Shown: positions 28,400 to 55,607, numbered from the stretch's first letter. The stretch: DNA of 64,000 nt from Gemmatimonadales bacterium (GCA_035763885.1 DASUAH010000034.1:104-64103); one strand, 5' to 3'. Notes: generated from the letters alone by a model not told the origin. A program made the numbers and translations.

Positions 28400-28849
28400 T
28401 CAGCTTTGGGACTTCTCCACCTTCACCGCCGGCCGTCCGATCCCGATCTTCTTGTCGGCGCGGCCCTTCACGTACTTGTAGATGTTCTCGATCTTGTCCA
28501 TCTCGAGCCCGAGCGCGCACCAGGCGGGCATCCCCTTCTCGGGGCGGCCGGCACACACCACCTGCACGAACAACTCCTTGCTCGGCACCGTCCCGTCAGG
28601 CTGCAGTGATACGATCAGGGCGGGGGCGAACGAGGTGCCCACCGCGTACTCGCCGTGGCAGCGCGCGCAGTTGAGCTCGTACTGCTTCCAGCCGTTGTAC
28701 ACGTCCTGCGCGACGGTGTCCCTGGGCGCAGTGTGATACGGATCGCGCGCCTGCGCGCCGGCGTCCCGGCCTGCCCCGGCCAGCAGAACGAAGACGGTGA
28801 CGACAGCACCGGCCAGGCGGGCGACCGGCGAGAACGAGGCGATTCGCAT
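28400..28849 (-). CDS. xoxG: c-type cytochrome (xoxG/mxaG-position electron acceptor candidate)
   Basis: MRIASFSPVARLAGAVVTVFVLLAGAG signal and CARCHG haem site, 149 aa. The symbol is based on operon position after xoxF-xoxJ, not on sequence-level proof. Confidence 0.75.
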   Translation of the reverse strand: MRIASFSPVARLAGAVVTVFVLLAGAGRDAGAQARDPYHTAPRDTVAQDVYNGWKQYELNCARCHGEYAVGTSFAPALIVSLQPDGTVPSKELFVQVVCAGRPEKGMPAWCALGLEMDKIENIYKYVKGRADKKIGIGRPAVKVEKSQS

Positions 28850-28981
28850 CTTGACGGACGGTCCTTTCAGCCTCTGAGGGCCCACGAGAAACGCCACGAC
28901 CACGGACAGACAAGCGCAACCGACGTGCCGCCCAAGGACGGACCGCCGAGGCGTGGGAACGGGGTAGTGGTAACTCGCATG

Positions 28982-29010
28982 ATTATACACCGTTGCCGCT
29001 TCGCTGTCGC
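28982..29010 (-). promoter_or_regulatory. internal promoter candidate GCGACA-N17-TATAAT at the 3-prime end of xoxJ
   Basis: A perfect TATAAT (28987-28982, minus strand) overlaps the xoxJ TAA stop, with exactly 17-nt spacing to GCGACA (29010-29005). It lies about 125 nt upstream of the cytochrome c ATG. Confidence 0.35.
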
Positions 29011-29957
29011 GGGGGACTCGACGGCGCCCCGGTCCCCGTGGCCGCCGGGGCGTCCCCCCGCGGGGCCGCTCTCGTACGCTCCTCCTCGGCCTTCTTCGGC
29101 TCGACCACCGGGAGCAGCGGCACGTGGTACTCGCGCAGGATGGCCTCGATCTCGGGTCGCTTCCGGTCGATCACCTGCTGCAGGCTGTCCCGCAGCTCCC
29201 CGTCCCGCCGCCGCACAGCCATCGACATGTTGAACGCAAACGGAATATCGGCCAGGCTGTCGTACTCGATCGGCCTGATGACGAGCGGCACCGGCGCCCG
29301 GGTGGCGAAGTAGCCGGCCAGCGGTCCCCAGACGATGGAGACATCGACCTTCTTGTCGACCACCGCGTCGATGATGGCTTCGGGGCGGTCGAGCTCGCTG
29401 TAGAAGGTGCCGAATCCCACCAGGTTGCCCACGACTCCGTGGCGGCTCAGCGCCATCGCGGGGGGCGTATTCTCCGCGTCGGAGTTGAGCAGGTTCACCC
29501 CGATCTTGAGCTTCTTCCAGTCGGGGTCATCCAGTGACTGGAGGTCGAGCCCGCTGTCCTTCCGGTAGACGATCACGTACGCCGAGCGGAAGTAGGGCTT
29601 GGTGGTCGCCGCCATGTCGAGCTCGGCGGGCGCGGTGAGGGCGATATCGCAGTAGCGGCCATTCAGGGCGCGCGAGAAGAACCCGCGGCGCACCGGCCAC
29701 CAGGCGTACTCGAGCTTCGCGTTCCATTCCTTGGCGAGGAGCTCGGCGATCTTGTTCTCGTAGCCCTCACCCTTCTCGTTCGAGGCCGGCATGTTGTCGG
29801 GGTCGGCACAGATGCGGAGCACCCCCGCCGTGGGGAGGGTCGAACGAAGGCCGCCGCCCTGCTGCGCCGGGGCGGGGGCGGGTGTCACGAGGAGCGCGAG
29901 CAGGCCAACGCTCGCGGCGGCTCGGAGCAGCATGCAGAAACGCTGGTGCGCGGTCAT
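28983..29957 (-). CDS. xoxJ: MxaJ/XoxJ-like periplasmic substrate-binding protein associated with quinoprotein dehydrogenases
   Basis: 324 aa. Signal, LRICADPDNMPASN, YENKIAELLAKEW and YCDIAL motifs typical of the MxaJ family. Pro/Ala-rich C-terminal tail. Confidence 0.85.
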   Translation of the reverse strand: MTAHQRFCMLLRAAASVGLLALLVTPAPAPAQQGGGLRSTLPTAGVLRICADPDNMPASNEKGEGYENKIAELLAKEWNAKLEYAWWPVRRGFFSRALNGRYCDIALTAPAELDMAATTKPYFRSAYVIVYRKDSGLDLQSLDDPDWKKLKIGVNLLNSDAENTPPAMALSRHGVVGNLVGFGTFYSELDRPEAIIDAVVDKKVDVSIVWGPLAGYFATRAPVPLVIRPIEYDSLADIPFAFNMSMAVRRRDGELRDSLQQVIDRKRPEIEAILREYHVPLLPVVEPKKAEEERTRAAPRGDAPAATGTGAPSSPPRQRSGNGV

Positions 29958-30025
29958 GCCTGCATCCCGGTACTGAGGGCCGGCGCGCCTTGGTTCGGTC
30001 CGGCGCGGGGGACCCGTGGTGACGA

Positions 30026-30058
30026 ACGGCGCCGGAGCGGGTCGCGCTCCGGCGCCGT
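30026..30058 (-). promoter_or_regulatory. 14-bp perfect intercistronic hairpin between xoxF and xoxJ
   Basis: ACGGCGCCGGAGCG (30026-30039), 5-nt loop, CGCTCCGGCGCCGT (30045-30058). No U-tract. Candidate mRNA-stability or partial-termination element. Confidence 0.5.
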
Positions 30059-30127
30059 CGCCGTACCTCGTGAATCTAGCCCCATCGGGCGCCGACGGCG
30101 ACGCCGCCGGGCCCGCGGGGGTGCTGC

Positions 30128-31939
30128 CTAGAGCGAGAAGACCGTCAGCACGCCACCCTGGGTGGAGAACTGACCCGCGTCGCCGAACGCGCCGAGCGCG
30201 CCCAGCCCCGCGGTCGGATCCTCGGCGCCGATCCCGGCGGCCACGCCGATGCCGGCCCAGCCACCGATGCCCGAGAGCACCGCGACGTACTGCTTGCCGC
30301 CGCTGGTGTAGGTCATCGGGTTGCCGATGATGCCCGAGGGCGTCTTGAAGCGCCAGAGCTCCTTGCCGCTCTGGGCGTCAACCGCCTTGAGCCAGCCTTC
30401 CATCGTGCCGTAGAAGACCACGCCGCCCGCCGTCGCGAGGGCGCCGCCGTACGCGGCGAGGTTCTCCTTGATCTCCCACTTCACGGTGCCCGCCATCGGA
30501 TCCCACGCGATGAACCGGCCGCGGTGACCGCCCGGGCCGGGGAACATGCGCACGATCGCGCCGACGTAGGGCTGGCCGGCCGAGTACTTCACTTCCACGC
30601 CCTCGTAGTCCATGCAGATGTGGTTCGCGGGGACGTAGAAGAGGCCGGTGGTGGGGCTGTATGCGGCGGGCTGCTGATCCTTGAAGCCGATCGCCGCCGG
30701 GCAGATGCCCTCGGTGTTCTTCTTGGAGGTGGTGCCGTACTTCGGATCGCGCACCGGGAGGCCGGTCGTCAGGTCGACGCTCTTGGCCCAGTTGACCGGG
30801 CCGAATGGCTTGGCCACGACCAGCTTGCCGTTGGTGCGGTCGAGCGTGTAGCCGAAGCCGTTACGATCGAAGTGGGCCAGCAGCTTCTGGCCGCCCTTCT
30901 CGAACAGCACCATCTCGTTGATGCCGTCGTAGTCCCACTCGTCGTGCGGCGTCATCTGGTAGGCCCAGACCACCGAGCCGTCGGCCGGCTTGCGGGCCCA
31001 GATCGTCATCGACCACTTGTTGTCGCCCGGCCGCTGGTCGGGGTTCCAGGTCCCGGGGTTGCCCGAGCCGTAATAGAAGAGATCGAGCTCGGGATCGTAC
31101 GAGTACCAGCCCCAGGTGGTGCCGCCGCCGCGCTTCCACTCGTCACCCTGCCAGGTCGACACGCCGAGGTCCTTGCCCTTGTGCGAGGCGTAGTTTGCGT
31201 TGCCGACGCCGTTCTGGATGCCGACCTCGTCGTCCGGACCGGTGGAGTACCGGGTCCAGAGATGCTTGCCGGTGTTCACGTCGAACGCCGAGACGCGGCC
31301 GCGGACGCCGAACTCACCGCCCGAAATGCCGGCAATGACGATGTCCTTGATCACGATCGGGGCGTTGGTCATCGTGGCGCCGGTCTTGTAACCGTTCGCC
31401 TCGGGACCCGCGTTCGACTTGTCCGGGTGCTTCGACTTCCACAGCTCCTTGCCGGTCTTGGCGTCGAGCGCGAGCAACTCACCCTGAAGCAGCTGGATGA
31501 AGATCTTGCCGCTGGGGTGGTACGCCGTGCCGCGGTTCACCAGGTCGCAGCACGCGATGGGAATCGCATCGGGCGACTGGTTCGGCACGTGCTTCCAGAT
31601 CTGCGGTGCACCCGGCTTGGAAAGGTCGAGCGCGTAGACGATGTTCGGGAACGAGGTGTGCACGTACATCACGTTCCCGATGATGAGCGGATTGCCCTCG
31701 TGACCTCGCAGCGTCCCGGTCGAGAACGTCCAGGCCGCTTTCAGGTTGGCCACGTTGGCAGTCGTGATCTGCTTGAGCGGGCTGAACCGCTGCATGCCGT
31801 AATCAATGCCCGTCATGTGCACCTCGCCCGCGGGCGCATTCAGGGTCCAAGCCCCTGACTTCGCCTGGGCGTTGGCGACGGTCGCGAGCGTGCAACTCGC
31901 GGCGACGCCACCCACCACCATCCGAGTAAAGCGGTTCAT
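30128..31939 (-). CDS. xoxF: PQQ-dependent methanol dehydrogenase, XoxF (lanthanide) type
   Basis: 603 aa from ATG 31939 (GAGG Shine-Dalgarno 6 nt upstream). Signal MNRFTRMVVGGVAASCTLATVANA, vicinal Cys IACCDLVNRG, PHDEWDYDGINEMV (D336-Y337-D338 at 30926-30934), and the MDH-type C-terminus GGVLTVFSL. Confidence 0.95.
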   Translation of the reverse strand: MNRFTRMVVGGVAASCTLATVANAQAKSGAWTLNAPAGEVHMTGIDYGMQRFSPLKQITTANVANLKAAWTFSTGTLRGHEGNPLIIGNVMYVHTSFPNIVYALDLSKPGAPQIWKHVPNQSPDAIPIACCDLVNRGTAYHPSGKIFIQLLQGELLALDAKTGKELWKSKHPDKSNAGPEANGYKTGATMTNAPIVIKDIVIAGISGGEFGVRGRVSAFDVNTGKHLWTRYSTGPDDEVGIQNGVGNANYASHKGKDLGVSTWQGDEWKRGGGTTWGWYSYDPELDLFYYGSGNPGTWNPDQRPGDNKWSMTIWARKPADGSVVWAYQMTPHDEWDYDGINEMVLFEKGGQKLLAHFDRNGFGYTLDRTNGKLVVAKPFGPVNWAKSVDLTTGLPVRDPKYGTTSKKNTEGICPAAIGFKDQQPAAYSPTTGLFYVPANHICMDYEGVEVKYSAGQPYVGAIVRMFPGPGGHRGRFIAWDPMAGTVKWEIKENLAAYGGALATAGGVVFYGTMEGWLKAVDAQSGKELWRFKTPSGIIGNPMTYTSGGKQYVAVLSGIGGWAGIGVAAGIGAEDPTAGLGALGAFGDAGQFSTQGGVLTVFSL

Positions 31940-32161
31940 AACTGACCTCAGGATGAAGGGTGATACTACCGCACCTGCACCTTCGGGATAGTGCCTTGTG
32001 GTGCCCCGGCCGGGCCCCCGGTCCTCCGTCGCTCCGGAAGCCCAGGCCCGCCGAGAAGGGCGCTCACGCGCGCGCGCCAGGTGGGCCACGCTCGATCGTG
32101 CACGCCATCCAGAAACCCCCGGCACAGGGGCTCCGAACCCGGATACGCGGGAAACTGATCC

Positions 32162-32187
32162 TTTGCATGTACGCCCAAAATCGCAAA
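32162..32187. promoter_or_regulatory. inverted repeat TTTGC-N16-GCAAA in the AT-richer patch upstream of xoxF
   Basis: TTTGC at 32162-32166 and GCAAA at 32183-32187, about 225-250 nt upstream of the xoxF ATG. It is short and could be chance. Confidence 0.2.
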
Positions 32188-32629
32188 AGCGCCAGACGGG
32201 GCGCCCGGCACCCGCCGGACCGACGGCGGGGCAGATCTGAGATGACCGGGGCGGGGGAGATACCGACATGACCATGTGGGTGAAGCGCGACGGGGCACCG
32301 CCACTTGACCCACGGGCGTTGGGACCGCAGCCATGCGGTCGCAGCGAACGGGAAAGATCCCATCATGGACATCGGCCAGGCCGTCGTCCCTCGCCGGGTT
32401 GTCTCGGAGGAATAGACCACCGCAACGGAGCGATCCGTCGGGCGGCGTCGCCAGGAGTTCCTGGACTGTTGTTGCGGCGCGGCTCGGCCGCCGCGGAGCG
32501 CGACCGGTGCGCAGTGCCGTTCGCCCTCACCAGTCGCACCACCCGGCAGCCGCGGCGCGAGTTCCCACGCGGAGATCCTGGGTCCGACTGGAAGGCGGGC
32601 GGAAACTATACCGCTCGCATTCTCAACTG

Positions 32630-33616
32630 TCAATCACGCAACGCCTTCGTCACCGCCCTCCAGACCCGGGCGCCCTCCGCCGCAAACGCGCCGGTCGAGA
32701 CCTGTCCGGTCGTACCGAGCCACTCCCTCGCGCACCGCGCCAGCCGCTCGGCCTCGGCATCACCGCGAACGATGGCGTAAGCTGTTGGACCCCAAGAGCT
32801 TTGGCCAACCCCCGGAGCCCCAGCCCCGGCGAATCGCTCGATCAGCATTCCGGTCGGGCCCGGCGCGAAGACGCCCCCCTGGCTCGCTGCGAACCAGCCG
32901 CCGGTTATGCGCTGGATCTCGCTCAGCGCCGCGCCGAAGGCCGCCAGGTCTCCATCGACGAGCGCCGGGAGAAGTCCCATGAGCGCCAGATGGGCCACGC
33001 GCTCCACCTCGCGGGCGGCCGGCGGGGGCAGGCGCCGGAACGCCGCGGCCTCGGCGTCGCCGCTCAGGCCCGGTGGACCCTCGGGGATCGCGAGCACGTA
33101 CCGCCACGAGGCCGGCAGCGGATACCGCGCGAGCAGCGGGGCGATGGCGTCGGACTCCGGCGGACGGCCGCCCTCGACGATGAACCCCCCGGACGCGAAC
33201 GCGTGCGTGCCGATGGCTGACCGGCGCCCGCGTCCCGCTGCGCGGGCGAGCTCCGGCGCCGCTGCGTCGATGCCGTGGAGCTCGGCGAGCGCCCGTGCCA
33301 CTGCGAGGCCGAGCTGGGTGCCCGAGCCGAGCCCCGCGTGGGCGGGGATCGCGCGGTGCACGCGGATGCGTGCCGCCCCCTGAAGGCCCCATCGCGCCGT
33401 CACGCGCCGGGCGAAGCTCGCCGCGCGCCTGGCGTCCGGCCCGGCGGCGGCGAACTCCGCCGCGCGCCCCACTTCGACGAGCAGCGACGGGGTGGGGATC
33501 GCCGCGCCCAGTCCGCCGAACCGGCGCCCCAGATCCCCCCTGAGGTCGAGCACGCCGAAGTGGAGACGCGCCGGCGCCTCCACGAACACCGCGTCCGCAT
33601 CGCCAGGCCCCGTCAC
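32630..33616 (-). CDS. beta-ribofuranosylaminobenzene 5-phosphate (beta-RFAP) synthase, H4MPT biosynthesis (GHMP-kinase fold)
   Basis: APARLHFGVLDL.G..GRRFGGLG, IPAHAGLGSGTQLGLAVA and SSWGPT motifs. The GTG 33616 start overlaps the DUF447 stop (GTGA). Confidence 0.85.
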   Translation of the reverse strand: MTGPGDADAVFVEAPARLHFGVLDLRGDLGRRFGGLGAAIPTPSLLVEVGRAAEFAAAGPDARRAASFARRVTARWGLQGAARIRVHRAIPAHAGLGSGTQLGLAVARALAELHGIDAAAPELARAAGRGRRSAIGTHAFASGGFIVEGGRPPESDAIAPLLARYPLPASWRYVLAIPEGPPGLSGDAEAAAFRRLPPPAAREVERVAHLALMGLLPALVDGDLAAFGAALSEIQRITGGWFAASQGGVFAPGPTGMLIERFAGAGAPGVGQSSWGPTAYAIVRGDAEAERLARCAREWLGTTGQVSTGAFAAEGARVWRAVTKALRD

Positions 33617-34203
33617 TTGCCCGCCCCCGCGCCCGCTTCCGCCCCCCCGGCCAGCCGCTCCGCCACGTAGCCCCGCAGCAGCTCCCAGGCCTCCTGCTCC
33701 CGGGGGCCGGCGGTCTTCTCCACCAGAACCGCGAGCCGCGCGAGCTCGTCGCGGACCTGGGCACCGGGCAGCAGGTGCACCCGGGTGGCGAGGATGGCGG
33801 CCTCGAGCACGGCGTGGCGGGCGCGATTGAACCCGATGAAATCGCGGCGGGTGCCCCGGTGGACCACCCGCGTGACGATGCGCGAGCGCGGGGGTGTGCC
33901 GTCGAGGTGCACCACTTCGAGCTCGCGCCAGGAGCACGCGGCGTCGAGGACCGCGCCCGGTACCGCCGACGCCGGCGACCAGGGAAACTCCGGGCTGGCG
34001 ATCGCGCTCCGGGCGAACAGCAGCACGTCGTCGGTCAGGTTGACCACGGCCGCGCGCGTGGCGCTCACGTTGCGGAAGGTCGTCGTGTCGAGAAACGGCT
34101 TGAGCACGATCGTCTCCTCGTCCCATTCGACACCCATGGGCGCGAAGTTGACCCGCCCGTCGGGCGCCAGCGACGTGACGATCGACTCGATGATGAGGGG
34201 CAT
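33613..34203 (-). CDS. DUF447 family protein (H4MPT-biosynthesis associated, flavin-reductase-like fold)
   Basis: 196 aa. MPLIIESIVTS...G.VNFAPMGV...T.T..N pattern. The family call is from memory and gene context. Confidence 0.7.
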   Translation of the reverse strand: MPLIIESIVTSLAPDGRVNFAPMGVEWDEETIVLKPFLDTTTFRNVSATRAAVVNLTDDVLLFARSAIASPEFPWSPASAVPGAVLDAACSWRELEVVHLDGTPPRSRIVTRVVHRGTRRDFIGFNRARHAVLEAAILATRVHLLPGAQVRDELARLAVLVEKTAGPREQEAWELLRGYVAERLAGGAEAGAGAGK

Positions 34204-34225
34204 GGTCGTCGCTGCCGGCTATCCG

Positions 34226-34930
34226 CTATCCGCCGGTGTACCATGGCGCTTCGTGCGCACGCGAGGCCCGGCGCCGGTCCAGGCCCTCGGCCGACAGCTG
34301 ATAGCCGATGGCGGAGAGCCCGAGGCCGCCGTCCGCCGCCGCCGGTGCCTCGGCCGCGCGGGCCGCATCGGCGCCGAGGAACCGGGCCAGCATCCGGTAC
34401 CCATGCTCGGTCAGCACCGATTCGGGGTGGAACTGCACTCCCACCACCGGGTGCTCCGCGTGGCGGACCGCCATGATCTCGCCGTCATCCGACGTCGCCG
34501 TCACCCTGAGCCACGGCGGCACCGATCCCGGCGCGATCACGAGCGAATGGTACCGTGTGGCGAGCAGCGGGTTGGGGAGCCCCTGGAAGATGCCGGTGCC
34601 GTCGTGCCGCACGAGGGATGTCTTGCCGTGCATCGGCCGGCGGGCGCGCACGATCTCGGCGCCGTACGCCTCCCCGATGCACTGATGTCCCAGGCACACG
34701 CCCAGGATCGGGATCGTGGCGCCGAGCCGGCGCACCAGCTCGGTGGAGATGCCCGCCTCCTTCGGCGAACACGGGCCCGGCGAGATGATGATGTGCGACG
34801 GGCCGAGCCGCGCAACCTCCTCGATCGTGATCGCGTCGTGGCGGCGGACCACCGGCGTCTCGCCGAGCTCGCGCACGTAGCGTGCGAGGTTGTAGACGAA
34901 GGAGTCGTAGTTGTCGATGAGTAAGATCAT
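34226..34930 (-). CDS. pabA: aminodeoxychorismate/anthranilate synthase glutamine amidotransferase component
   Basis: MILLIDNYDSFVYNL, catalytic GVCLGHQ and GVQFHPES. About 45 aa of C-terminal extension. Confidence 0.85.
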   Translation of the reverse strand: MILLIDNYDSFVYNLARYVRELGETPVVRRHDAITIEEVARLGPSHIIISPGPCSPKEAGISTELVRRLGATIPILGVCLGHQCIGEAYGAEIVRARRPMHGKTSLVRHDGTGIFQGLPNPLLATRYHSLVIAPGSVPPWLRVTATSDDGEIMAVRHAEHPVVGVQFHPESVLTEHGYRMLARFLGADAARAAEAPAAADGGLGLSAIGYQLSAEGLDRRRASRAHEAPWYTGG

Positions 34931-34948
34931 GAGCTATGAGCAGCCACC

Positions 34949-36424
34949 TCAGACATGCGCCAGCGCCCGGATGATCCCCCGCGCCTTGTCCAGCGTCTCG
35001 CGGTACTCCTGCTCGGGGTCCGAATCCGCCACGATCCCGCCGCCGGCCTGAAAATACACCCGCCCGCCGAGCGCCACGGCGGTGCGGATCGCGATGCTGG
35101 TATCCATCTCGCCCGTGAGGCCCAGGTACCCGAGCGAGCCGCAGTACACGCCGCGCCGCGTCGGCTCCAGCTCGGCGATGATCTCCATCGCGCGCACCTT
35201 GGGGGCACCGGTGATCGAGCCGCCGGGAAACGCGGCGCGGATGAGTGCGACCGGATCGGCCCCGGGCTCGAGCTCGCCGACCACGGTCGAGACCAGGTGG
35301 TGCACGGTCGGATGGTGCTCGAGGGCGAAGAGCTCGGGTACGCGGACCGTCCCGGGCCGGCAGACGCGCGAGAGGTCGTTCCGGAGCAGATCCACGATCA
35401 TCACGTTCTCCGCGCGGTCCTTGTCGCTCTCGGCCAGCACCTGGCTGAGCAGGGCGTCGTGCATGGGGCCCAGCCCGCGCGGGCGGGTGCCCTTGATCGG
35501 GCGGGTCTCGACATGGGTGCCGGAGAGGCGGAGGAATCGCTCCGGTGAGACGCTGAGAATCTGATGGTCGCCGGCGTCGAACCACGCCCCGAACGCGGCC
35601 GGGTTCTGCCGCCGGAGGCGGCGATAGAGCGACCATGGGTGCTCTCCGAGCGGCGCCTCGAACCGCTGCGACAGATTGGCCTGGAAGATGTCGCCCGCGA
35701 GGATGTACTCGCGCACCCGCGCGACGGCGGACAGATAGCCGCGATGGGTGAACGTGGAGCGGAGTCCGATCTGCTCGGCGCTCTCGACGCCGTAGACCGG
35801 GAACGATGGGGCGCCGTCGGAGGAGGCGACCAGCCGAGGAGCGGGAGGGAGCTGCGGGGTACGGCTCGTCCGCTCGCCGCTCGCCAAGCGCCCGCGCACG
35901 AGTGCCAGTCGTTCCCCGGCCCTCCGGGTGCGTGCGGCCCCGTCGAGCGGCATTCCGGTCGACACGATCCACGCCGACCCCTCGCAGTGGTCCCAGGCGA
36001 TCACCCAGTCGTACACGCCCAGCAGCACGTCGGGCATTGCGAGGTCGTCGTAGCGCGGCGCCGGCAGCCGCTCGAGGGTGCTGCCCCAGTCGTACGCGAT
36101 GTAGCCCGCCGCCCCGCCCTGGAACGGCGGCAGACCCGCCACCCCGGGCGCGGCGAACGGGGCCAGCTCGGCGGCGATCGCGGCGAGGGCGTCCCCGCCG
36201 CTGCGGGTCCGGCGCCCGCCGGCATCCATCCTCTCGGTGGCGGAGCCCTTGCTGCGGACGACGACACACGGGTCCGCGCAGAGGAAGCTGTAGCGCCCGG
36301 TGCGCTCGTGATCGGCGGTGCTGTCGAGGAGGAGCACCAGCGGAAGGTCGGCGAAGCGCTCCGCCGCGTCGGCCGGATCCGGCACGGAGGCGAGCGGCTC
36401 GACCAACGGCACCGCGCGGCTCAC
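34949..36424 (-). CDS. pabB: aminodeoxychorismate synthase component I
   Basis: 491 aa chorismate-binding enzyme (GDIFQANLSQRF, PGGSITGAPK, RGVYCGSLGY). The pab rather than trp assignment is from context next to beta-RFAP synthase, which uses pABA. Confidence 0.8.
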   Translation of the reverse strand: MSRAVPLVEPLASVPDPADAAERFADLPLVLLLDSTADHERTGRYSFLCADPCVVVRSKGSATERMDAGGRRTRSGGDALAAIAAELAPFAAPGVAGLPPFQGGAAGYIAYDWGSTLERLPAPRYDDLAMPDVLLGVYDWVIAWDHCEGSAWIVSTGMPLDGAARTRRAGERLALVRGRLASGERTSRTPQLPPAPRLVASSDGAPSFPVYGVESAEQIGLRSTFTHRGYLSAVARVREYILAGDIFQANLSQRFEAPLGEHPWSLYRRLRRQNPAAFGAWFDAGDHQILSVSPERFLRLSGTHVETRPIKGTRPRGLGPMHDALLSQVLAESDKDRAENVMIVDLLRNDLSRVCRPGTVRVPELFALEHHPTVHHLVSTVVGELEPGADPVALIRAAFPGGSITGAPKVRAMEIIAELEPTRRGVYCGSLGYLGLTGEMDTSIAIRTAVALGGRVYFQAGGGIVADSDPEQEYRETLDKARGIIRALAHV

Positions 36425-37902
36425 TCGGTTTCCGCGGCGCGCGCGGCCCGGCGCGACCGCTGGGTGAGCTTGACGTGCTCGGCGCGGGGATCGTCCGGGG
36501 GCGTCAGATAGCCCCAGCTGAGTGCCCCTTCCTGCCGGTAGGTCTTGCCCAGCTGCAGCGCGAGCCTGGCCTTCATCAGCTCCCGGCCGAGGTAGAAGGC
36601 GTGCATGGGCTCATCGACGCCCAGCTGGGCGAAGATGGCCTGGACGTCGGTGCCGCGCACGAAGATCTCGTTGTTGAAGACGGTGATCGCGTCGCGGTCG
36701 GCGAAGATCCGGAAGTTCGGGTCCTTCACCGCGGCGTGCAGCTCGCGCAGCTCGGCCTCGCTGTAGCCGAGCACCTCGGGATCCTTCACCGTGACCAGCC
36801 GGTCGTCCACCCCCTTGGGGACCCGCCGTTCTCGCACGGCGTAGTGCATCAGGCGTCGCGCGACGTCGAGCTCGCGCACCGACCCGCGGGCCCACGGGAT
36901 CACCTCGGTCGTGAGCACGGCGCGGACGCCGACCTCCTCCGCGATCGCCATCAATACGGCGTTCACGCCGGTGGTGTCCGCCGCAGTGAGCTCGGTGATG
37001 TTGCCCACTCCCATGAGCTGCGCCGCGTCCGGATGGCGCCGGCGCACCTCGGCGTACCGCTCCAGGGACGCCATGAAGCCGAAGCCGATCGGCTCGATGA
37101 CCGGATCGACCAAATACGGCACCCCCCAACGCTCGAGCGCCGCGATGCTCCGGTCGAGCGTATCGAGTCCCGCGCCGAAGTCCGGGATCACCACGACCTT
37201 CCCGCCACCCTCGGCGACGTCCTGCGCCACGTCGAGGTTCGTGGCGTTCACGCTGAGCACGAGCTCGGCGCCGGCCGCGACCGCGGTCCGGATCTCGTCC
37301 GGATCGAAGGAATCGATGCTCACGCGGAGCCCCGCGCCGCGGAGCTCGCGCACCGACTCGCCGAGGTGCGGGAAGGACGCACCCGGGGTGCACCCGAGAT
37401 CGATGATGTCGGCGCCGTCCGCGCGGTACCGCTCCGCGGCGGCGCGGATCGCGTCGCGCGACAACTTCGCCGCGTTGTTGATCTCGGCCAGGATCTCGAT
37501 GCTGTAGGCGCCGTAATCGGGCGCCGCGGCGGCGCGGCCGAAGTAGGCGGGAATCTCGCGCAGGTCCTTCGGTCCCTTCTCCACGCGCACCCCGAACCGC
37601 TCCGCGATGACGGCCGGATCGCCCTCGCAGAGCCCCGGAATGAGCACGAGGTCCGTGCCGTCGGGCACCTGCAGGAAGCGCGCGATCCACGGCGCGGTCA
37701 TCAGGGCGGCCACCGTGATCTTGAGGACGGCGACATGCGCCTCGAAGGGCGGGTGCATGTCCGCCAGGGTGCGGCGGAGGGCCGGCTCGGCCAGCGTGCC
37801 GGTGACGAAGAGGACGCGGCGGATGGCCGGACGGCCGGACGGCGGGACGGCCGGGTGGCCGGTCCGCTCTTCGCTACGAGGACCGTCTGCCCCGGGGAGC
37901 AC
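36421..37902 (-). CDS. H4MPT-type dihydropteroate-synthase-like protein (MJ0301-like, with N- and C-terminal extra domains)
   Basis: Pterin-binding barrel (GADIIDLGCTPG...SIDSFDP...VLSVNA...DPVIEPIGFGF). The proposed start is GTG 37902. The track ORF 36421..39249 is a run-on through upstream genes. Confidence 0.8.
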   Translation of the reverse strand: MLPGADGPRSEERTGHPAVPPSGRPAIRRVLFVTGTLAEPALRRTLADMHPPFEAHVAVLKITVAALMTAPWIARFLQVPDGTDLVLIPGLCEGDPAVIAERFGVRVEKGPKDLREIPAYFGRAAAAPDYGAYSIEILAEINNAAKLSRDAIRAAAERYRADGADIIDLGCTPGASFPHLGESVRELRGAGLRVSIDSFDPDEIRTAVAAGAELVLSVNATNLDVAQDVAEGGGKVVVIPDFGAGLDTLDRSIAALERWGVPYLVDPVIEPIGFGFMASLERYAEVRRRHPDAAQLMGVGNITELTAADTTGVNAVLMAIAEEVGVRAVLTTEVIPWARGSVRELDVARRLMHYAVRERRVPKGVDDRLVTVKDPEVLGYSEAELRELHAAVKDPNFRIFADRDAITVFNNEIFVRGTDVQAIFAQLGVDEPMHAFYLGRELMKARLALQLGKTYRQEGALSWGYLTPPDDPRAEHVKLTQRSRRAARAAETE

Positions 37903-39197: not shown

Positions 39198-39522
39198 GCC
39201 GCCTCCCCCCTTGACCGGTTCCAGTGTGCCAACCCCTAACCGCTAACATATCTTGACGTTAGCATCTCACAAGGGAGCCGCGCCGATGGTCGTTGCGCGG
39301 CAGTCATCCGGACGGGCAGCCCCGCTTGCGAACGGCGGCCGCGATTGCAGGAGCGCCGGGGCGTGCCGCGAAGCACCAGACGGAGCCGGGCGACCCGGCC
39401 CCGCGGACATCGGCAAGTATCGCTGCGCCAACAACCTGCGCCACACCGCCGGCAGGGCATAGCGTTTGCCACTGTCAGGCACATCTCCCGGTCGTCAACT
39501 ACCTCGTCAGCTCTGGATCTCC

Positions 39523-42500
39523 ATGACGCTCGGTCGGGGCCTGCTGCGCAGCCGATTCGGTCGCCGTCTGGTGCTGCTGTTCGTCGGCTGCGCGGTGGTC
39601 CCGATGGCGCTGCTCGCGGTCCTGTCCTGGCGGCACATGACCCGCCAGCTCGAGCGCCAGAGCCAGTTGCGGCTCCATCAGGCGAACCGCGCCCTCGGTC
39701 GCGCGGTCTTCGAGCGGCTGCTGCTGCTCGAGGCGACGCTCAAGAACATCCCCCCCACGGCCATCGCCGAGCTGGCGCGCAGCGCGCTCGTCCCGGAGCC
39801 ACCCGCCGCCGGGCCGCCGGCTCGTACCGGCGGCGTCACGGGCGCAGTGACCCGCGCGCCGGTAGACGGGCGGGTCGCGCTCGGGGGGCTGAAAGACCGC
39901 CGAGGTCGGGCCGGGGACCCGCCAGCGCCTCCGGCCCCGAGCCACGATCCGGAGGCGAGCCGTGCGCTCGCCGTCGGGCTCGATCTCCTCGCCCGCAGCC
40001 GCTTCGCCGCACTCGAGTTCCAACCCGACGTCGGCCGCCGCCTGCCGGTCTTCGGCCGGCTTGACCGGGTCCCCGCCCTCACGCCCGCGGAGAGCGCGTT
40101 CGTCGGGGAGAGCCATACGCTCGTCGTCACCGAGCACGCCGACACCGGCGCCGCGCGGATCTATCTCGTGCGTCGCATGGATCGGCGTGAGGCGCGGGGT
40201 TTCTTCGTCGGGGAGGTGAGCCCGGCTTACCTGTGGGGCACGCGCGAGCAGGGCATGCCGTCGCCGGCGACGCATCTGGCGGTCGTGGATGACTCGGGTC
40301 ACGTGCTGTTCGGCCCGCCGCCGGTGACATCGGCGTGGGGGGGACCGGTGGACGATACGGCCGCAACGGATCCGGCCGAGGCGGGGCTGTCCTCGACTCG
40401 CGTGGAACCCGAGGTGGTCGCCAGCTACTGGCCGGTGCCGATCGAGAGCGTGTTCGGCGCTCCCGACTGGATCATCGTGCTGAGCGAGCCGAGGGAGGCT
40501 GTGGTCGGGCCGATGACCGATTTTGCGTCGACCTTCGCGCTCATCATCGCACTCTGCACCGGCGTCGTGCTGCTCCTCAGCATGAGCCAGATCCGGCGGA
40601 GTCTGATGCCGCTCGAGGAGCTGCAGGAGGGGACCCGCCGCATCGCGCTCCGTGACTTCGACACCCGTGTGGCGGTCACCAGCCACGACGAGTTCGCCGA
40701 GCTGGCGGAGTCGTTCAACTCGATGGCCACACGGCTCGGCCGGCAGTTCCGGGCGCTGGACACGGCCGCCGACATCGATCGTGCCGTGCTCAGCGCCACC
40801 GATGCCACCACCATCGTCCGGGCGGTGCTCGCGCGGCTCCCCGACGTCTATCCGTGCGCCGGCGCCTGCATCACCCTGTTCCCGGCCGACCGGGGCGGTG
40901 CCGGGCCGAGCTGGGTGAGGAGCTTCGGGGCCGCCGGGGTCCCGGAGCTGAGGCGGGTCGAGTTCGCGCCGGGTGAGCTGCGCGCGCTGGCCGCGCTTCC
41001 CGAGGTGCTCGAACTCGGCGACGGCGATCCGCTCCCCGCGTGCGTGCGGCCCCTCGCCGAACTGGGGCTCCGCTCCTTCGTCGTGCTGCCGCTCGCCTAC
41101 CAGCAGCAGCTTGCCGGCGTGCTGGTGCTCGGCGCCGCCGACGCGTCGCGGACGCCGGACGACCTGCTGCACGCCCGGCGGCTGGCCGACCAGGTCGCCG
41201 TGGCGCTGTCCAACGCGCGCATGATCGATCAGGTGCGCACGCTGGCGTACTTCGACAGCCTCACCGGGCTGCTCAACCGCGCGGCCTACAAGGAGCGCCT
41301 CGCGCGGGCGCTCGCGCTGGCGAAGCGGGACCGGCGGTCTGCGGCGGCGTTCTTCATCGACCTCGACAACTTCGGCCGCATCAACGACACGCTGGGACAT
41401 GAGCTGGGGGACGAGCTGCTCCGCCAGGTGGCCGGCCGCCTGCGCGCCTGCTGCGAGGCTGAGGAAAGTGGGCCGGGCCCCCGGGCGCGGCCCGAGGTGG
41501 CGCGCATCGGCGGTGACGAGTTCACCGTCCTCGTGGGCGGCCTGCCCCGGCCGGAAGACGCGGTCGGGCTGGCCCGGCGCATTCTCGCCGTGTTCGCGCC
41601 CTCCTTCCAGCTCGGCCAGCACGACATGTTCACGACGGCGAGTGTCGGCGTCGCGGTCTACCCGGAGGACGGCGAGGAGGTGGAGACCCTGCTCGCCCAC
41701 GCCGACACGGCGATGTACGAGGCGAAGCATCAGGGCGGCAATGGCTACCAGCTTTACTCGCGCTCCATGAACGCGACCGCGCTGCAGCGCCTCACCCTGG
41801 AGAACGATCTCCGGCGGGCGCTGGAGCGCGACGAGCTGGTGCTCCACTATCAGCCCATCGTCGAGGCCGCGACCGGCGTCATCGTCGGCGCGGAGGCGCT
41901 GGTGCGCTGGCGCCACCCCTCGCTGGGACTCCTGCTCCCGGGCGAGTTCATCGCCATCGCGGAGGAGAACGGGCTGATCGTGCCGCTGGGGGAGTGGGTG
42001 CTGCGCACGGCGTGCGCCCAGAACCGCGGGTGGCAGAGCGCGGGCCTGCCCCCGATCCGGGTCGTGGTCAACCTCTCCGGTCGGCAGCTCCGGCAAGGCA
42101 ACCTGATCGCCGGCGTGCGGGACGCGCTGGAAGCCGCGGGACTGGAGCCGGAGTGGCTCGGCCTCGAGCTCACCGAGAGCATGCTCATGGAACGCCAGCA
42201 CGAGGGCGTGTCGGCGCTGCAGGCGCTCCGGGCCATGGGCATCCAGCTCTCCATCGACGACTTCGGGACCGGCTATTCCTCCCTCAGTTACCTCAAGCAC
42301 TTCCCGGTCGATACGCTGAAGATCGATCGCTGCTTCGTGCGGGACCTCGCCAGCGTGCCCGACGACGCCGCGATCACAGCGGCGATCATCGCGATGGCGC
42401 ACGCGCTCGATCTCCTGGTGGTCGCCGAAGGCGTCGAGACCGAGGAGCACCTCGGCTTTCTCCGGGCGCAGGGATGCGACGAGGTCCAGGGACACCTGCT

Positions 42501-42600
42501 GGGCCGGCCGGTCCTGCCGGAGCGGTTCGCGGAATGGCTGGCGCGACCCCGGCCGGTGATCCGGAGCTCCAGGCGCACGACCGGGATCCGCTCGGCCTGA
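39523..42600 (+). CDS. membrane sensor diguanylate cyclase/phosphodiesterase (periplasmic domain-HAMP-GAF-GGDEF-EAL)
   Basis: Two TM helices flank a ~300-aa periplasmic region. HAMP (LMPLEELQEGTRRIALRDFD), intact RIGGDEFTV, and EAL motifs (EALVRW, ELTES, DDFGTGYSSL). The start may instead be at 39466. Confidence 0.9.
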   Translation: MTLGRGLLRSRFGRRLVLLFVGCAVVPMALLAVLSWRHMTRQLERQSQLRLHQANRALGRAVFERLLLLEATLKNIPPTAIAELARSALVPEPPAAGPPARTGGVTGAVTRAPVDGRVALGGLKDRRGRAGDPPAPPAPSHDPEASRALAVGLDLLARSRFAALEFQPDVGRRLPVFGRLDRVPALTPAESAFVGESHTLVVTEHADTGAARIYLVRRMDRREARGFFVGEVSPAYLWGTREQGMPSPATHLAVVDDSGHVLFGPPPVTSAWGGPVDDTAATDPAEAGLSSTRVEPEVVASYWPVPIESVFGAPDWIIVLSEPREAVVGPMTDFASTFALIIALCTGVVLLLSMSQIRRSLMPLEELQEGTRRIALRDFDTRVAVTSHDEFAELAESFNSMATRLGRQFRALDTAADIDRAVLSATDATTIVRAVLARLPDVYPCAGACITLFPADRGGAGPSWVRSFGAAGVPELRRVEFAPGELRALAALPEVLELGDGDPLPACVRPLAELGLRSFVVLPLAYQQQLAGVLVLGAADASRTPDDLLHARRLADQVAVALSNARMIDQVRTLAYFDSLTGLLNRAAYKERLARALALAKRDRRSAAAFFIDLDNFGRINDTLGHELGDELLRQVAGRLRACCEAEESGPGPRARPEVARIGGDEFTVLVGGLPRPEDAVGLARRILAVFAPSFQLGQHDMFTTASVGVAVYPEDGEEVETLLAHADTAMYEAKHQGGNGYQLYSRSMNATALQRLTLENDLRRALERDELVLHYQPIVEAATGVIVGAEALVRWRHPSLGLLLPGEFIAIAEENGLIVPLGEWVLRTACAQNRGWQSAGLPPIRVVVNLSGRQLRQGNLIAGVRDALEAAGLEPEWLGLELTESMLMERQHEGVSALQALRAMGIQLSIDDFGTGYSSLSYLKHFPVDTLKIDRCFVRDLASVPDDAAITAAIIAMAHALDLLVVAEGVETEEHLGFLRAQGCDEVQGHLLGRPVLPERFAEWLARPRPVIRSSRRTTGIRSA

Positions 42601-45445: not shown

Positions 45446-46237
45446 CTACTGCTGTACGCCGATGAGCGCGGTGAGCCCGCCGCTTGCGAAGTTCGCGAGA
45501 TCGTCGCCCACCTTCTTGAACGCCGGAGTGGCGGTCCCCTTCGCCACGGCCTCGGACGACTCGAAGCAGAGCTCGGCCTGCCGGTACTTTGCCGCCGGGC
45601 TCCCGTCGAGGTTCGACTCGAACTTCGTGAGATCGGCACGGACGAAGCCGATCTCGCCCTGGCCGGCGCTCACCAGGGGGAGGTGGGTGTCGGCGTAGTA
45701 GCGCTCGAACACGGCGTGGTCCTTCGGGTGCTCGTAGATCACCGTGACCAGCGCGCGGCAGGCGGCCGGACTCTCTTCTCCGGTTTCAGTCGCGATCATG
45801 GCGATCAGACCGCCGGTCGCGAAGTTCGCGAGATCGTCGCCCACCTTCTTGAATGCGGGGGTGGCGGTTCCCTTCCTGAGGTCGTCCATCGAGCCGAAGT
45901 ACAGCTCCGCCTGGCGGTAGAACGTCGGCTCCTTGCCATCCAGTGTCGACACGAACTTCGTCAGCTCCGCGGTGGTGAACCCGATCTCACCCTGGCCGCC
46001 GCTCACCAGCGGCAGGTGCACCTCCCGGTAGTATTTCTCGAACGCCGCCGTGTCCTTCGGCTGCAGGTAGATCACCGTCACGATCGCCCGCGGGCCCGCC
46101 GCGGCCGCCGGGGCCGGCGCGGAGTCGGCCGAGGCGGCGGGCTTGTCAGCGGTTCGGCCGCAGGCGAGGGCGAGGGCCACGAGGACGACGGGGGCGGGGC
46201 GCATCTGGTCTCTCCGCTGATGATGGTGAGCATTCAC
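45446..46237 (-). CDS. tandem EthD-domain lipoprotein
   Basis: Lipobox VVLVALALAC (likely start MRPAP at 46204). Two ~105-aa EthD-like modules each begin IVTVIY/LVTVIYxxPKDxxxFExYY and end KGTATPAFKKVGDDLANFA(T/S)GGL. Confidence 0.8.
   Translation of the reverse strand: MNAHHHQRRDQMRPAPVVLVALALACGRTADKPAASADSAPAPAAAAGPRAIVTVIYLQPKDTAAFEKYYREVHLPLVSGGQGEIGFTTAELTKFVSTLDGKEPTFYRQAELYFGSMDDLRKGTATPAFKKVGDDLANFATGGLIAMIATETGEESPAACRALVTVIYEHPKDHAVFERYYADTHLPLVSAGQGEIGFVRADLTKFESNLDGSPAAKYRQAELCFESSEAVAKGTATPAFKKVGDDLANFASGGLTALIGVQQ
45486..45853 (-). repeat. internal tandem duplication (period 333 bp) within the EthD gene
   Basis: An identical 35-nt string, gcgaagttcgcgagatcgtcgcccaccttcttgaa, occurs at 45486-45520 and 45819-45853. 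The flanks are similar but diverged. Confidence 0.85.
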
Positions 46238-46238
46238 C

Positions 46239-47225
46239 CTACTCGGGATAGCACGACGCCGTCAGCACCGCGGGATCCAGGTTGCCCGCGCTGAAGGTGC
46301 GCCCGGTCGTCGTGCTGGTGAGCCGCACCTGGGCCGGGCTGAACAACAGCGGGTCGATCTTGTAGAAGTCGCCGTCGTAGCGCTGGAAGATCTCGTAGAA
46401 CGGTGTGCCACAATCGGGCGAGGAGGACGCCGGCACCTTCGGCGCCAGCTCGGCGAGTTCCTCGTCGCCGGCGCGCACGGTGAAGTGCGCCTGGGCGCCG
46501 TAGAGGATGCAGTCGTTGGTGCGGCCGATCGCGCGGATGTCGTTCTTTGCGACCGGAGGAATCGGCGCCATGCCCATGCCGCTGACCACCTTTCGCACAT
46601 CGAACCCCAGCGTCTCCATCTTGTGGAGCCCGGTCTCGAGCACCCGCGCCGCGATCTGGACGCCACCCGCGAGGCTGGCGGTGGGGGCGATGACGAACGT
46701 GAGCTGGGAGGGCTGGAGACCGGCCTTCGCCGCCACCCATGCCGCGACTGCGTCGGTAGGGAGCCGGCGGCCCTCGAGCACGAGCACGCCCTGCTCGGCC
46801 TGCTCGGCGTACTCCAGCTTCTCGAACAGCTCCTTCTCGACGCGGGCGTGCGCCCGCAACGGGCCGGACCCCATCGCGAAGAATTCCCCGACCGAGATCG
46901 CCCAGCCGGCGTACTGCGAGGCCATGCACGCCACCGCGGGGTGGTCCGTCCACACCGTGACCCCCGGCCAGGTGCGGTCGCCGATGGGCAGCGGGCTGTA
47001 GACGACGTTGCCCAGGCCGCCCATGCAGATCTTGGCGAGAGCGAGGCCGGCGTCGAAGCCACCGTCCACCTCCACTCCGGCGTCGATCACCCGTGCCCCG
47101 CCGGGCAGGCGATGGACCCGGACGCGGAGCCGCGCGGCATTCTCCTCCACGGCGTCCGCGATCTCCACCGCCAGCTCGTTGAGACCCAGCGCGTCGAGAC
47201 TGGGTGACGTCGTTCCGATGGTCAT
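46239..47225 (-). CDS. mch: methenyl-tetrahydromethanopterin cyclohydrolase
   Basis: 328 aa. Mch-typical ...VIDAGV...GG..AGL.LA.ICMGGLG.V...; SQYAGW; GSGP.RA. ATGA overlap with the upstream ftr. Confidence 0.9.
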   Translation of the reverse strand: MTIGTTSPSLDALGLNELAVEIADAVEENAARLRVRVHRLPGGARVIDAGVEVDGGFDAGLALAKICMGGLGNVVYSPLPIGDRTWPGVTVWTDHPAVACMASQYAGWAISVGEFFAMGSGPLRAHARVEKELFEKLEYAEQAEQGVLVLEGRRLPTDAVAAWVAAKAGLQPSQLTFVIAPTASLAGGVQIAARVLETGLHKMETLGFDVRKVVSGMGMAPIPPVAKNDIRAIGRTNDCILYGAQAHFTVRAGDEELAELAPKVPASSSPDCGTPFYEIFQRYDGDFYKIDPLLFSPAQVRLTSTTTGRTFSAGNLDPAVLTASCYPE

Positions 47226-48133
47226 GCGTGCGCCTCCGTGCTCTCCGCCATGATCTGCCGAAGGTGGAAGTGATGGGGGCCGAGCTTGCCGCCGTAGTTG
47301 CCCGCCGTGATCGACACCACGCCGTCGCGGCAGGCGGCGCCGATCCCGGCTCGCATCGCCCGGCTGATCGCGCCGGCGTCGAGGCCGTTGATCACGATCT
47401 CGAGCACCGAGTTGACCCCCTCGGGCAGCGCGGTCTGCGTGGCGGCCCGGAGCGTCGGGCAGAAGGCGTCGTTGGTCGAGGCGATCATCTTCTTCGAGCG
47501 GCGCGAGCCGACCTTGCTCCCGCTGCGCACCACGCCTCCGGGAAAGGGGAGAATGACTCCTGCCGCCGGCGTCATCGCCGCCACCGCCGCCTCCGCCGCG
47601 TCCAGCGCGGCGTCTGCGCTCCGGGCGAGGATCAGGAAGTTCCCCCCGCCCACGCCCTTCTGCATGCCGAACTTCTCCTGCACCAGGAACTCCCCTTCCA
47701 TGACCGGGATCCGCCAGAACCGCTCGCCGCGGAGCACCTTGCTCGCCTGAAAGCCGTCCCCGAAGAACCGGAGCACCGACCCGACGCCGATCCGGTCCGG
47801 GGCATCGGGCAGCCCGTCGAAGCAGGCGGTGGTCGGGCAGGTGAGCACCGTCTGACCCACGCGCTCGACCAGCCGGTTGGAGAGGTCGTCCTTTCCCATG
47901 GTCATGACGAGCACGCTCACGCCCGGCCGGCCGTCCGGCGTCTCCGCCGGAGCGAGCTCGCGCTCGATGCCCGCCTCGCACTTGCACCCGATGACCGATG
48001 TCGCGAAGCCCGTGAGCTTGAGCGCCGCCTCCCGGGCCCAGCGGAGCGTGCGCGCCGTGATGAGCACGCGCGCTACGCGGACGGTGAACGCCTCGGCAAA
48101 GGTGTCATCGATGAAGACGCCGCGCAGATACAT
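47222..48133 (-). CDS. ftr: formylmethanofuran:H4MPT N-formyltransferase (Ftr/FhcD), copy 1
   Basis: 303 aa. IDDTFAEAF..R.AR.LITA......A....TGFATSVIGC.CEAGIE, FFGDGFQ.SK, WRIPVMEGEF, GGGNFL. Confidence 0.9.
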   Translation of the reverse strand: MYLRGVFIDDTFAEAFTVRVARVLITARTLRWAREAALKLTGFATSVIGCKCEAGIERELAPAETPDGRPGVSVLVMTMGKDDLSNRLVERVGQTVLTCPTTACFDGLPDAPDRIGVGSVLRFFGDGFQASKVLRGERFWRIPVMEGEFLVQEKFGMQKGVGGGNFLILARSADAALDAAEAAVAAMTPAAGVILPFPGGVVRSGSKVGSRRSKKMIASTNDAFCPTLRAATQTALPEGVNSVLEIVINGLDAGAISRAMRAGIGAACRDGVVSITAGNYGGKLGPHHFHLRQIMAESTEAHA

Positions 48134-48160
48134 GATCAGCCCTCCGTGGCCGCCCCGCGC

Positions 48161-48976: not shown

Positions 48977-49015
48977 GCGGGGTCCTGGAGCGGCGGCGGT
49001 GCGGCCGCGGACAGC

Positions 49016-51525: not shown

Positions 51526-51544
51526 GATCCGCTCGGCCGTCCGG

Positions 51545-53320: not shown

Positions 53321-54705
<1,385 letters not shown>

Positions 54706-54709
<4 letters not shown>

Positions 54710-55602: not shown

Positions 55603-55607
55603 CGGGG

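Follow-up and report, generated by a model that had tools for sequence, protein, structure and literature searches.

A probable lanthanide-type xoxF operon beside tetrahydromethanopterin genes in a Gemmatimonadales bacterium

Methanol is a major plant-derived volatile and, to our knowledge, no methylotroph of the phylum Gemmatimonadota has been cultured. The closest described system comes from the Angelo soil study, where a XoxF of Gemmatimonadetes, i.e., a methanol dehydrogenase (MDH) of the family dependent on pyrroloquinoline quinone (PQQ), was the most abundant soil protein and exhibited the aspartate of lanthanide enzymes, the genes for the biosynthesis of tetrahydromethanopterin (H4MPT) were located directly upstream of xoxF, and the genomes encoded PQQ biosynthesis, a complete H4MPT pathway and the serine pathway (Butterfield et al., 2016; PeerJ 4:e2687; PMC5103831). 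In some soils, XoxF enzymes of Gemmatimonadota rank with the most abundant of the detected proteins, and the MDH alignment published with that work gathers MDH proteins detected by proteomics (PMC5103831). The present work concerns a window of 64,000 nucleotides, that is, the whole stretch of DNA analysed (GCA_035763885.1, DASUAH010000034.1:104-64103), which very probably bears the xoxF operon of a Gemmatimonadales bacterium, encoding a lanthanide-type XoxF together with XoxJ and a XoxG-like cytochrome c, beside H4MPT genes (Table 1). This gene arrangement is not new. One of the relatives collected here, the locus L019, is contig 13_1_20cm_4_scaffold_43 (MNIR01000051.1) of the Angelo soil study, and the published protein 13_1_20cm_4_scaffold_43_59 is found letter for letter within its XoxF; since L019 displays the matching arrangement, the window is a further example of the soil Gemmatimonadota locus published in 2016.

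An earlier reading of this DNA, made from the letters alone and called hereafter the sequence-only reading, had proposed a lanthanide-type XoxF, and this proposal is supported by family models, comparison with solved structures, mapping of the ligands, the tree and conserved synteny. The announced PQQ dehydrogenase of 603 residues is encoded by an intact open reading frame (ORF), which translates to 603 amino acids (aa) plus a stop and exhibits a strong third-position GC bias (0.88). The protein matches NCBIfam TIGR03075 (PQQ dehydrogenase, methanol/ethanol family) with 674 bits for a cutoff of 480, as well as Pfam PF01011 with 209 bits. When compared against all PDB chains, the matches comprise (i) XoxF1 of M. 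extorquens (6OC5, 731 bits), (ii) XoxF of M. buryatense (6DAM, 683 bits), (iii) XoxF of Methylacidiphilum SolV (4MAE, 677 bits), (iv) calcium MxaF chains (580-619 bits), (v) a XoxF1-type chain (7O6Z, 566 bits), and (vi) PedH, ExaA and quinohaemoprotein alcohol dehydrogenases (280-345 bits, PedH and ExaA being at about 340). Identity amounts to 61%, 60% and 58% with the solved lanthanide XoxFs and to 52% with MxaF, PedH and ExaA being far below, and the alignment reaches the final residue of the MDH-specific C-terminal extension. At the other end, the N-terminus MNRFTRMVVGGVAASCTLATVANA/QA, with its hydrophobic core and ANA/Q, resembles a Sec signal by inspection. Membership of the MxaF/XoxF lineage, as put forward in the sequence-only reading, is borne out by the TIGR03075 score above cutoff, by lanthanide XoxFs as top PDB matches and by a lineage clade with 100% bootstrap.

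The motifs by which the enzyme had first been recognised are all present in the translation, namely IACCDLVNRG at residues 128-137 with the vicinal pair Cys130-Cys131, the C-terminus GGVLTVFSL, and PHDEWDYDG at residues 331-339, where D336-Y337-D338 is encoded by GAC TAC GAC. The pair C130-C131 lines up with C104-C105 of the SolV enzyme, and every MDH reference has its Cys-Cys pair at this place. The metal ligands E209, N294, D336 and D338 correspond to SolV E172, N256, D299 and D301, all four being kept, and R359 corresponds to SolV R326. In an alignment of 62 sequences, all XoxFs have Asp at position 338 and all MxaFs have Ala there; the D-F/Y-A expected for MxaF at this marker is indeed read as DEWDYAG in the PDB MxaF chains and as DEWDFAG in the Methylocella reference MxaF, the XoxF references being all D-x-D. 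In the second shell, the window protein exhibits the XoxF-type signatures GGEFG and NPGTWN, the counterparts of which in MxaF chains are GAELG and NPAPWN. Taken with the ligand set, the metal site would be that of a PQQ dehydrogenase of the lanthanide type. No second PQQ dehydrogenase was found by a search of the window; in three other loci, i.e., L018 (5480-7351), L020 (4920-6932) and L030 (3814-8257), one or two extra PQQ dehydrogenase paralogues lie a few kb from xoxF, which are 31-36% identical and also exhibit D-x-D (WDLDA or YDYDA).

Relatives of XoxF were collected by scanning the GTDB species with a single genome each, which returned more than 600 of them. Nearly all of the top 30 or thereabouts are from Gemmatimonadales or other Gemmatimonadota metagenome-assembled genomes (MAGs) with 69-84% identity, plus a fragment of 448 aa at 95%; as such, the closest GTDB representatives are at 84% identity over the full length and at 95% over the fragment. 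The next tiers correspond to Acidobacteriota, Opitutales and one unclassified bacterial MAG (60-67%), and then to Alphaproteobacteria (55-60%). The L041 fragment, labelled Gemmatimonadaceae, clusters with Acidobacteriota sequences instead. When the exact XoxF sequence of the window was looked up in public assemblies, no record was obtained. The succession DHPS-like gene (DHPS, dihydropteroate synthase), pabB, pabA, DUF447, beta-RFAP synthase (beta-RFAP, beta-ribofuranosylaminobenzene 5'-phosphate), xoxF, xoxJ, cytochrome c, pentapeptide-repeat gene and YVTN gene is found in most of about 30 Gemmatimonadota assemblies, and the window and most Gemmatimonadota loci have the identical gene order up to YVTN and, beyond it, convergent doxX and prolyl oligopeptidase genes. 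The GC content of the window, 70%, fits a Gemmatimonadales host. While the sequence-only reading held the taxonomy to be undeterminable from the window, this was too cautious, since XoxF and all the flanking genes, in the same order, have their nearest relatives in Gemmatimonadales MAGs, which designates the host as a member of the Gemmatimonadales. Of note, the xoxF DNA is 89% identical to that of the closest relative, L016, where the adjacent H4MPT biosynthesis genes are 74% identical (window positions 30596-34194); in this comparison, conservation is far higher in xoxF than in the adjoining genes.

The placement of the enzyme was examined in a neighbour-joining tree with 100 bootstraps, including the locus proteins, five PDB sequences and nine references of Taubert 2015 taken from the alignment in the supplement of Butterfield 2016; among these references, XoxF3 is represented by three partly truncated sequences and XoxF2 by a single one, and the outgroup consists of other PQQ alcohol dehydrogenase paralogues, with no ExaF/PedH sequences as such. 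The MxaF/XoxF lineage forms a single clade (100%) that includes the window protein, which belongs to a Gemmatimonadota clade (100%) sister to an Acidobacteriota/Opitutales clade (100%). This pair stands outside the reference clades XoxF1, XoxF3, XoxF4, XoxF5 and MxaF (each 100%) and apart from the XoxF2 reference, and joins XoxF4, MxaF and XoxF5 together at 68%. As respects the placement against XoxF1-5 and MxaF that the sequence-only reading had suggested as a check, the protein is inside the MxaF/XoxF clade and outside the reference XoxF1-5 groups, its separation from the ethanol-type enzymes PedH and ExaA being given by the PDB scores above. Its identity to the references is 61% for XoxF5, 58% for XoxF2, 54-55% for XoxF4, 50-53% for XoxF3, 49-52% for MxaF and 49% for XoxF1. 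Despite the closest identity being with XoxF5 (61%), the XoxF5 clade of 17 sequences (100%) excludes the window protein. Likewise, the XoxF3 references, i.e., Solibacter usitatus, Bradyrhizobium STM3843 and Methylocystis, cluster with one another at 100%, and the clade of the window is not part of their group. Naming the enzyme XoxF3 after the literature was considered and set aside as unsupported by this tree; in a looser usage, soil metagenomics papers place the XoxF of Gemmatimonadetes, Acidobacteria and Verrucomicrobia in XoxF3 (PMC10875860). The name of the sub-clade appears unsettled, the tree being a neighbour-joining one with few references.

Respective to the downstream genes, the sequence-only reading had described an operon xoxF-xoxJ-cytochrome c; those three genes stand, whereas the count is five, the genes for a pentapeptide-repeat protein and a YVTN beta-propeller protein having been omitted. 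The MxaJ/XoxJ-like binding protein and the CxxCH cytochrome that it placed after xoxF are recognised by a TIGR03871 score above cutoff and by the motif CARCH, respectively. The binding protein is of the XoxJ type, with 269.6 bits to TIGR03871 (cutoff 212) vs. 120 bits to TIGR03870, i.e., MoxJ (cutoff 258), and a top PDB match to XoxJ (6ONP, 172 bits) vs. 106 bits to MxaJ (9ISM_B). In most Gemmatimonadota and Acidobacteriota loci whose contig reaches that far, xoxJ comes after xoxF. For the cytochrome, the mechanical ORF runs through 28400..28990 (to GTG 28990), and the likely true start is ATG 28849, followed by a signal peptide. As a separate observation, a promoter-like GCGACA-17-TATAAT is present at the 3' end of xoxJ (28982-29010, minus strand), some 130 nt before the start codon of the cytochrome gene.

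The pentapeptide-repeat gene begins at ATG 28385, 14 nt past the cytochrome stop, and its product exhibits a hydrophobic signal-like N-terminus; it is present between the cytochrome and YVTN genes in most loci of Gemmatimonadota, and no copy was detected in the xoxF loci of Acidobacteriota and Verrucomicrobiota. The YVTN gene overlaps the stop of the pentapeptide-repeat gene by 11 nt and is kept downstream in Gemmatimonadota and several Acidobacteriota loci. Its product displays a lipobox-like N-terminus (LAAC), with 265.7 bits to TIGR03866, slightly below the cutoff of 287.3, and 240 bits to the YVTN repeats of TIGR02276. The so-called PQQ-dependent catabolism-associated set (TIGR03866/TIGR03871) is thereby found beside a PQQ dehydrogenase, its TIGR03871 member being above cutoff. 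The operon contains no partner ABC transporter genes. As stated in the sequence-only reading, neither mxaI nor mxaF was found in the window, the search for PQQ dehydrogenases and tblastn being empty, where the lack of a match for mxaI is weak evidence. The composition, i.e., xoxF with xoxJ and a dedicated c-type cytochrome, without mxaI, is that of a xoxF operon, with the proviso that the match to XoxG is weak and the negative for mxaI is weak evidence.

Table 1. Features of the xoxF locus and of the adjoining H4MPT block, in positions of the window.
Feature	Position	Strand	Basis
xoxF, 603-aa PQQ methanol dehydrogenase, predicted periplasmic and of the lanthanide type	30128..31939	-	TIGR03075, PDB matches, ligand map, tree
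Codons D336-Y337-D338 (catalytic Asp and lanthanide-marker Asp)	30926..30934	-	translation, alignment
xoxJ, periplasmic MoxJ/XoxJ-type binding protein, 324 aa	28983..29957	-	TIGR03871, PDB 6ONP
xoxG-like mono-haem cytochrome c, 149 aa from ATG 28849	28400..28849	-	CARCH, GMPAW Met-ligand region
Periplasmic pentapeptide-repeat protein, 296 aa	27495..28385	-	Pfam Pentapeptide, 146.7 bits
YVTN beta-propeller lipoprotein, PQQ-dependent catabolism-associated type, 361 aa	26420..27505	-	TIGR03866, TIGR02276
Long 5' leader/intergenic region, ending in conserved TCACCCTTCATCCTGAGGTCAG (31944-31965)	31940..32604	-	conservation
Putative sigma-70-type promoter GATTGACA-N17-TATAGT	32605..32635	-	at stop codon of beta-RFAP synthase gene
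H4MPT biosynthesis block upstream of xoxF	32630..37758	-	same order upstream in most Gemmatimonadota loci
beta-RFAP synthase	32630-33568	-	
DUF447	33613-34203	-	
pabA	34226-34930	-	
pabB	34949-36424	-	
DHPS-like gene	36421-37758	-	

Upstream of xoxF, a promoter scan revealed a near-consensus TTGACA-17-TATAGT at 32633..32605, identical to the consensus at 11/12 positions. For the pattern GATTGACA-N17-TATANT, the window gives a single match and 100 shuffles give none. Across the aligned upstream regions of Gemmatimonadales, GATTGACA is invariant and followed by a -10-like TAT(A/G)NT or TAAAGT in 16/16 cases, where the flanks have diverged and are not alignable. From the -10 element to the xoxF ATG, the distance is 401-720 nt in the 16 loci, and the last 22 nt or so before the ATG (TCACCCTTCATCCTGAGGTCAG, around the ribosome-binding site) are nearly invariant across loci. 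The leader exhibits no codon-position GC bias. Because of the conserved promoter 401-720 nt upstream and the conserved block before the ATG, promoter and leader suggest a transcript of its own for xoxF, beginning with a long leader.

Two candidates for the content of the leader were rejected. An upstream small ORF (GAGG-N6-8-ATGG) aligns in most loci, yet as a conserved peptide gene it fails, the ORFs being of 51-125 aa with unrelated sequences, the GAG being missing from both the window and L016, its closest relative, and codon-position GC bias being absent. A PqqA-like precursor was set aside as well, the leader ORF of the window being by eye without the E-x-x-x-Y motif. In a scan of the whole window, leader included, no Rfam family reached the gathering threshold; the GC-rich hairpins just before the conserved block differ between sub-lineages, and no hairpin structure shared between leaders was seen by eye.

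Together with the clade placement, the promoter and leader bear on a broader and rather improbable reading, in which the enzymes of Gemmatimonadota, Acidobacteriota and Verrucomicrobiota would constitute a sixth XoxF lineage rather than XoxF3, the Gemmatimonadales having their own control and accessory set. What suggests such a set is the invariant promoter, the leader of 400-720 nt with its conserved 22-nt block, and the co-encoded pentapeptide-repeat and YVTN proteins; under a sixth lineage, the leader could give metal- or lanthanide-responsive post-transcriptional control, and the two proteins might have a part in maturation or metal delivery.

On the other side of the promoter, the beta-RFAP synthase gene ends 690 bp from the start of xoxF, and from 32.6 kb to the window end, genes related to H4MPT and methanofuran are found, most of them for cofactor biosynthesis, plus mch, ftr, fwd and fhc. 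Besides the block of Table 1, this island encodes (i) a pterin-4a-carbinolamine dehydratase, a short-chain dehydrogenase/reductase, a MfnE-like kinase, and HisA/F-like and CitG-like proteins, and (ii) Mch, two formyltransferases, two sets of formylmethanofuran enzymes, MptN, and MfnD-, MfnF- and MfnB-like proteins. Two further genes are embedded in the island, namely for a GGDEF-EAL signalling protein of 1044 aa (39466-42600, plus strand) and for a double-EthD protein (45446-46237, minus strand).

Of the two formylmethanofuran sets, the first, labelled fhc (47222-53268, minus strand), resembles the archaeal-type formylmethanofuran dehydrogenase, not the Fhc hydrolase of methylotrophs. Its FwdB-like protein (51545-52894) matches archaeal FwdB with 380 bits (8RJA_B) and 367 bits (5T5I_B), vs. 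57 bits for FhcB of M. extorquens (6S6Y_B), and displays CTFCGCVCDD (taken as a 4Fe-4S motif) and SVCHGPS (taken as containing the W/Mo-ligand Cys), which align identically with archaeal FwdB. A FwdD-like subunit (52891-53268) is encoded directly upstream of the FwdB-like gene, and fwdA, fwdC and ftr follow. The second tandem set (54706-58626, minus strand) comprises ftr/fhcD2, fhcA2 and fhcB2; FhcB2 keeps CPFCGLTCDD, exhibits NSPAVLRN in place of the Cys-bearing SVCHGPS of FwdB, and resembles the Cys-less Fhc hydrolase type. Between the two sets, a GltD-like FAD/NAD(P) oxidoreductase (53321-54709) might be the electron partner of the Fwd-type enzyme.

Concerning the way the system would operate, the protein family, the ligands, the gene order and their conservation within the phylum are what the sequences show, and we infer the metal dependence, substrate, electron path and co-transcription as follows. 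XoxF would be exported to the periplasm and would bind PQQ and a light lanthanide via Glu209, Asn294, Asp336 and the XoxF-specific Asp338. It would oxidise methanol to formaldehyde, possibly on to formate, and the electrons would pass from XoxF to the co-encoded XoxG-like cytochrome c and then to the respiratory chain. XoxJ would be a periplasmic accessory or activator protein, as in Methylorubrum, and the pentapeptide-repeat and YVTN proteins may be co-transcribed periplasmic accessories. The C1 product would be handled by the H4MPT/methanofuran pathway, of which the cofactor-biosynthesis, mch, ftr, fwd and fhc genes lie in the 30 kb upstream. When the sequence-only reading had formaldehyde feeding into an adjacent downstream H4MPT island, the adjacency stood (690 bp), while the island is upstream on the coding strand and the step of formaldehyde uptake is not encoded in the window, since neither fae nor mtdB is there. 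A tblastn search of the window for fae gave no match; that the query works is indicated by its finding fae in two alphaproteobacterial loci.

Several points weigh against the locus being an ordinary methanol-oxidising xoxF operon coupled to H4MPT. First, the cytochrome matches XoxG weakly, its top PDB match being XoxG 6ONQ with 29 bits (E 1e-5) and its TIGR03874 score 50.5 bits, under the cutoff of 162. It is nonetheless treated as a probable divergent orthologue of XoxG because it has in common with proteobacterial XoxG of XoxF5 loci the framework Y-x-G-W/F-K/R ... C-x-x-C-H-G ... A-P-x-L ... M-P ... Y-x-Y-x-K/R-A/G-R; in the alignment with the other fetched loci, it also has two extra Cys, kept in close Gemmatimonadales relatives. 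Second, no enzyme of the clade of the window XoxF has been purified, and Voutsinos 2024 puts such enzymes in XoxF3, biochemical data being lacking for soil XoxF3 enzymes. Third, in family scans of nearly all the other called genes of the window, no fae, mtdB, pqq or lanthanide-uptake (TonB-receptor/lut) genes were found, and no lanmodulin-like gene. The link between XoxF and H4MPT therefore rests on adjacency and on the published relatives, which together suggest a coupling from methanol through formaldehyde to H4MPT. Fourth, some XoxF take methanol to formate in vitro, bypassing H4MPT (cited in Butterfield 2016, PMC5103831).

The first alternative, which is distinctly unlikely, is that the enzyme is a lanthanide PQQ dehydrogenase with a job other than methanol to formaldehyde, be it methanol to formate, periplasmic formaldehyde or broader alcohols, with H4MPT loosely coupled. 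Formate was the reported product of SolV-type XoxF (quoted in Butterfield 2016), the window has no fae or mtdB, its clade is outside all the biochemically studied XoxF clades, and the conserved promoter of its own separates xoxF from the H4MPT genes. On the contrary, tight conservation of the H4MPT biosynthesis genes at their place immediately upstream of xoxF is seen throughout the phylum, a full H4MPT pathway and the serine cycle are present in published relatives, and the active site does not differ from that of methanol-oxidising XoxF5 and XoxF2. In Methylorubrum, XoxF has a regulatory effect on mxa expression, and a calcium-dependent MxaF-like enzyme, or a non-catalytic, regulatory XoxF remnant, would be the next alternative; it has nothing specific in its favour, is highly improbable and is contradicted by Asp instead of Ala at position 338, the presence of GGEFG and NPGTWN, the absence of any mxaF or mxaI hit in the window, the intact ORF with its GC bias, and a published orthologue among the MDH proteins detected in soil proteomes. 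As for a lanthanide ethanol dehydrogenase of the ExaF/PedH type, the Asp marker and TIGR03075 in common, and the TIGR03866-type beta-propeller also annotated near ped-type clusters (family description), are far outweighed by the scores (about 340 bits for PedH/ExaA vs. 731 for XoxF), by the C-terminal extension specific to MxaF/XoxF, with TVFSL at its end, for which MDH chains alone give an alignment, and by the position within the MxaF/XoxF clade, so that this possibility is effectively refuted.

The lanthanide-type xoxF operon of the window is, in terms of significance, one more complete and well-assembled example of the locus, with a context of 64 kb, which could help in the choice of genes for heterologous expression; as an ordinary and already described feature of soil Gemmatimonadota, it leaves beliefs about these organisms unchanged. 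Compared to the known systems, from the most distant to the nearest, MxaFI (1LRW, 4TQO, 1W6S) shares fold, lineage, Cys-Cys pair and C-terminal extension with the window XoxF at 52% identity, but differs by Ala vs. Asp338, by GAELG and NPAPWN vs. GGEFG and NPGTWN, and by a small subunit, the gene of which was not found in the window with a weak query. The XoxF3 references (Taubert 2015: Solibacter usitatus, Bradyrhizobium STM3843, Methylocystis rosea) have the lanthanide Asp in common with the window XoxF, but are only 50-53% identical, with DLFDHDE or DDHDYDG at the marker and HPGRNG or HPDRNA vs. HFDRNG. The XoxF of Methylacidiphilum fumariolicum SolV (XoxF2; 4MAE) matches with 677 bits and 58% identity, its ligands corresponding one-to-one, but belongs to a different clade and to a verrucomicrobial methanotroph, whereas none of the scanned window genes was one for a methane monooxygenase. 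The XoxF1-XoxG-XoxJ system of Methylorubrum extorquens AM1 (XoxF5; 6OC5, 6ONQ, 6ONP) provides the top solved match for all three window proteins, and its XoxF1 has metal and PQQ ligands identical to those of the window XoxF; compared to it, the window has the extra pentapeptide-repeat and YVTN genes, a very divergent cytochrome with two extra Cys, and the gene order F-J-G, that of Methylorubrum being presumably F-G-J. Finally, the Gemmatimonadetes locus of Butterfield 2016 (L019) is from a different lineage within the same phylum, and the published contig figure shows fae and mtdB where the 64-kb window is without both (PMC5103831); it has nonetheless the same gene order from the DHPS-like gene to YVTN, with doxX convergent, a XoxF 72% identical to that of the window with the same lanthanide Asp, and, in both, H4MPT biosynthesis directly upstream.

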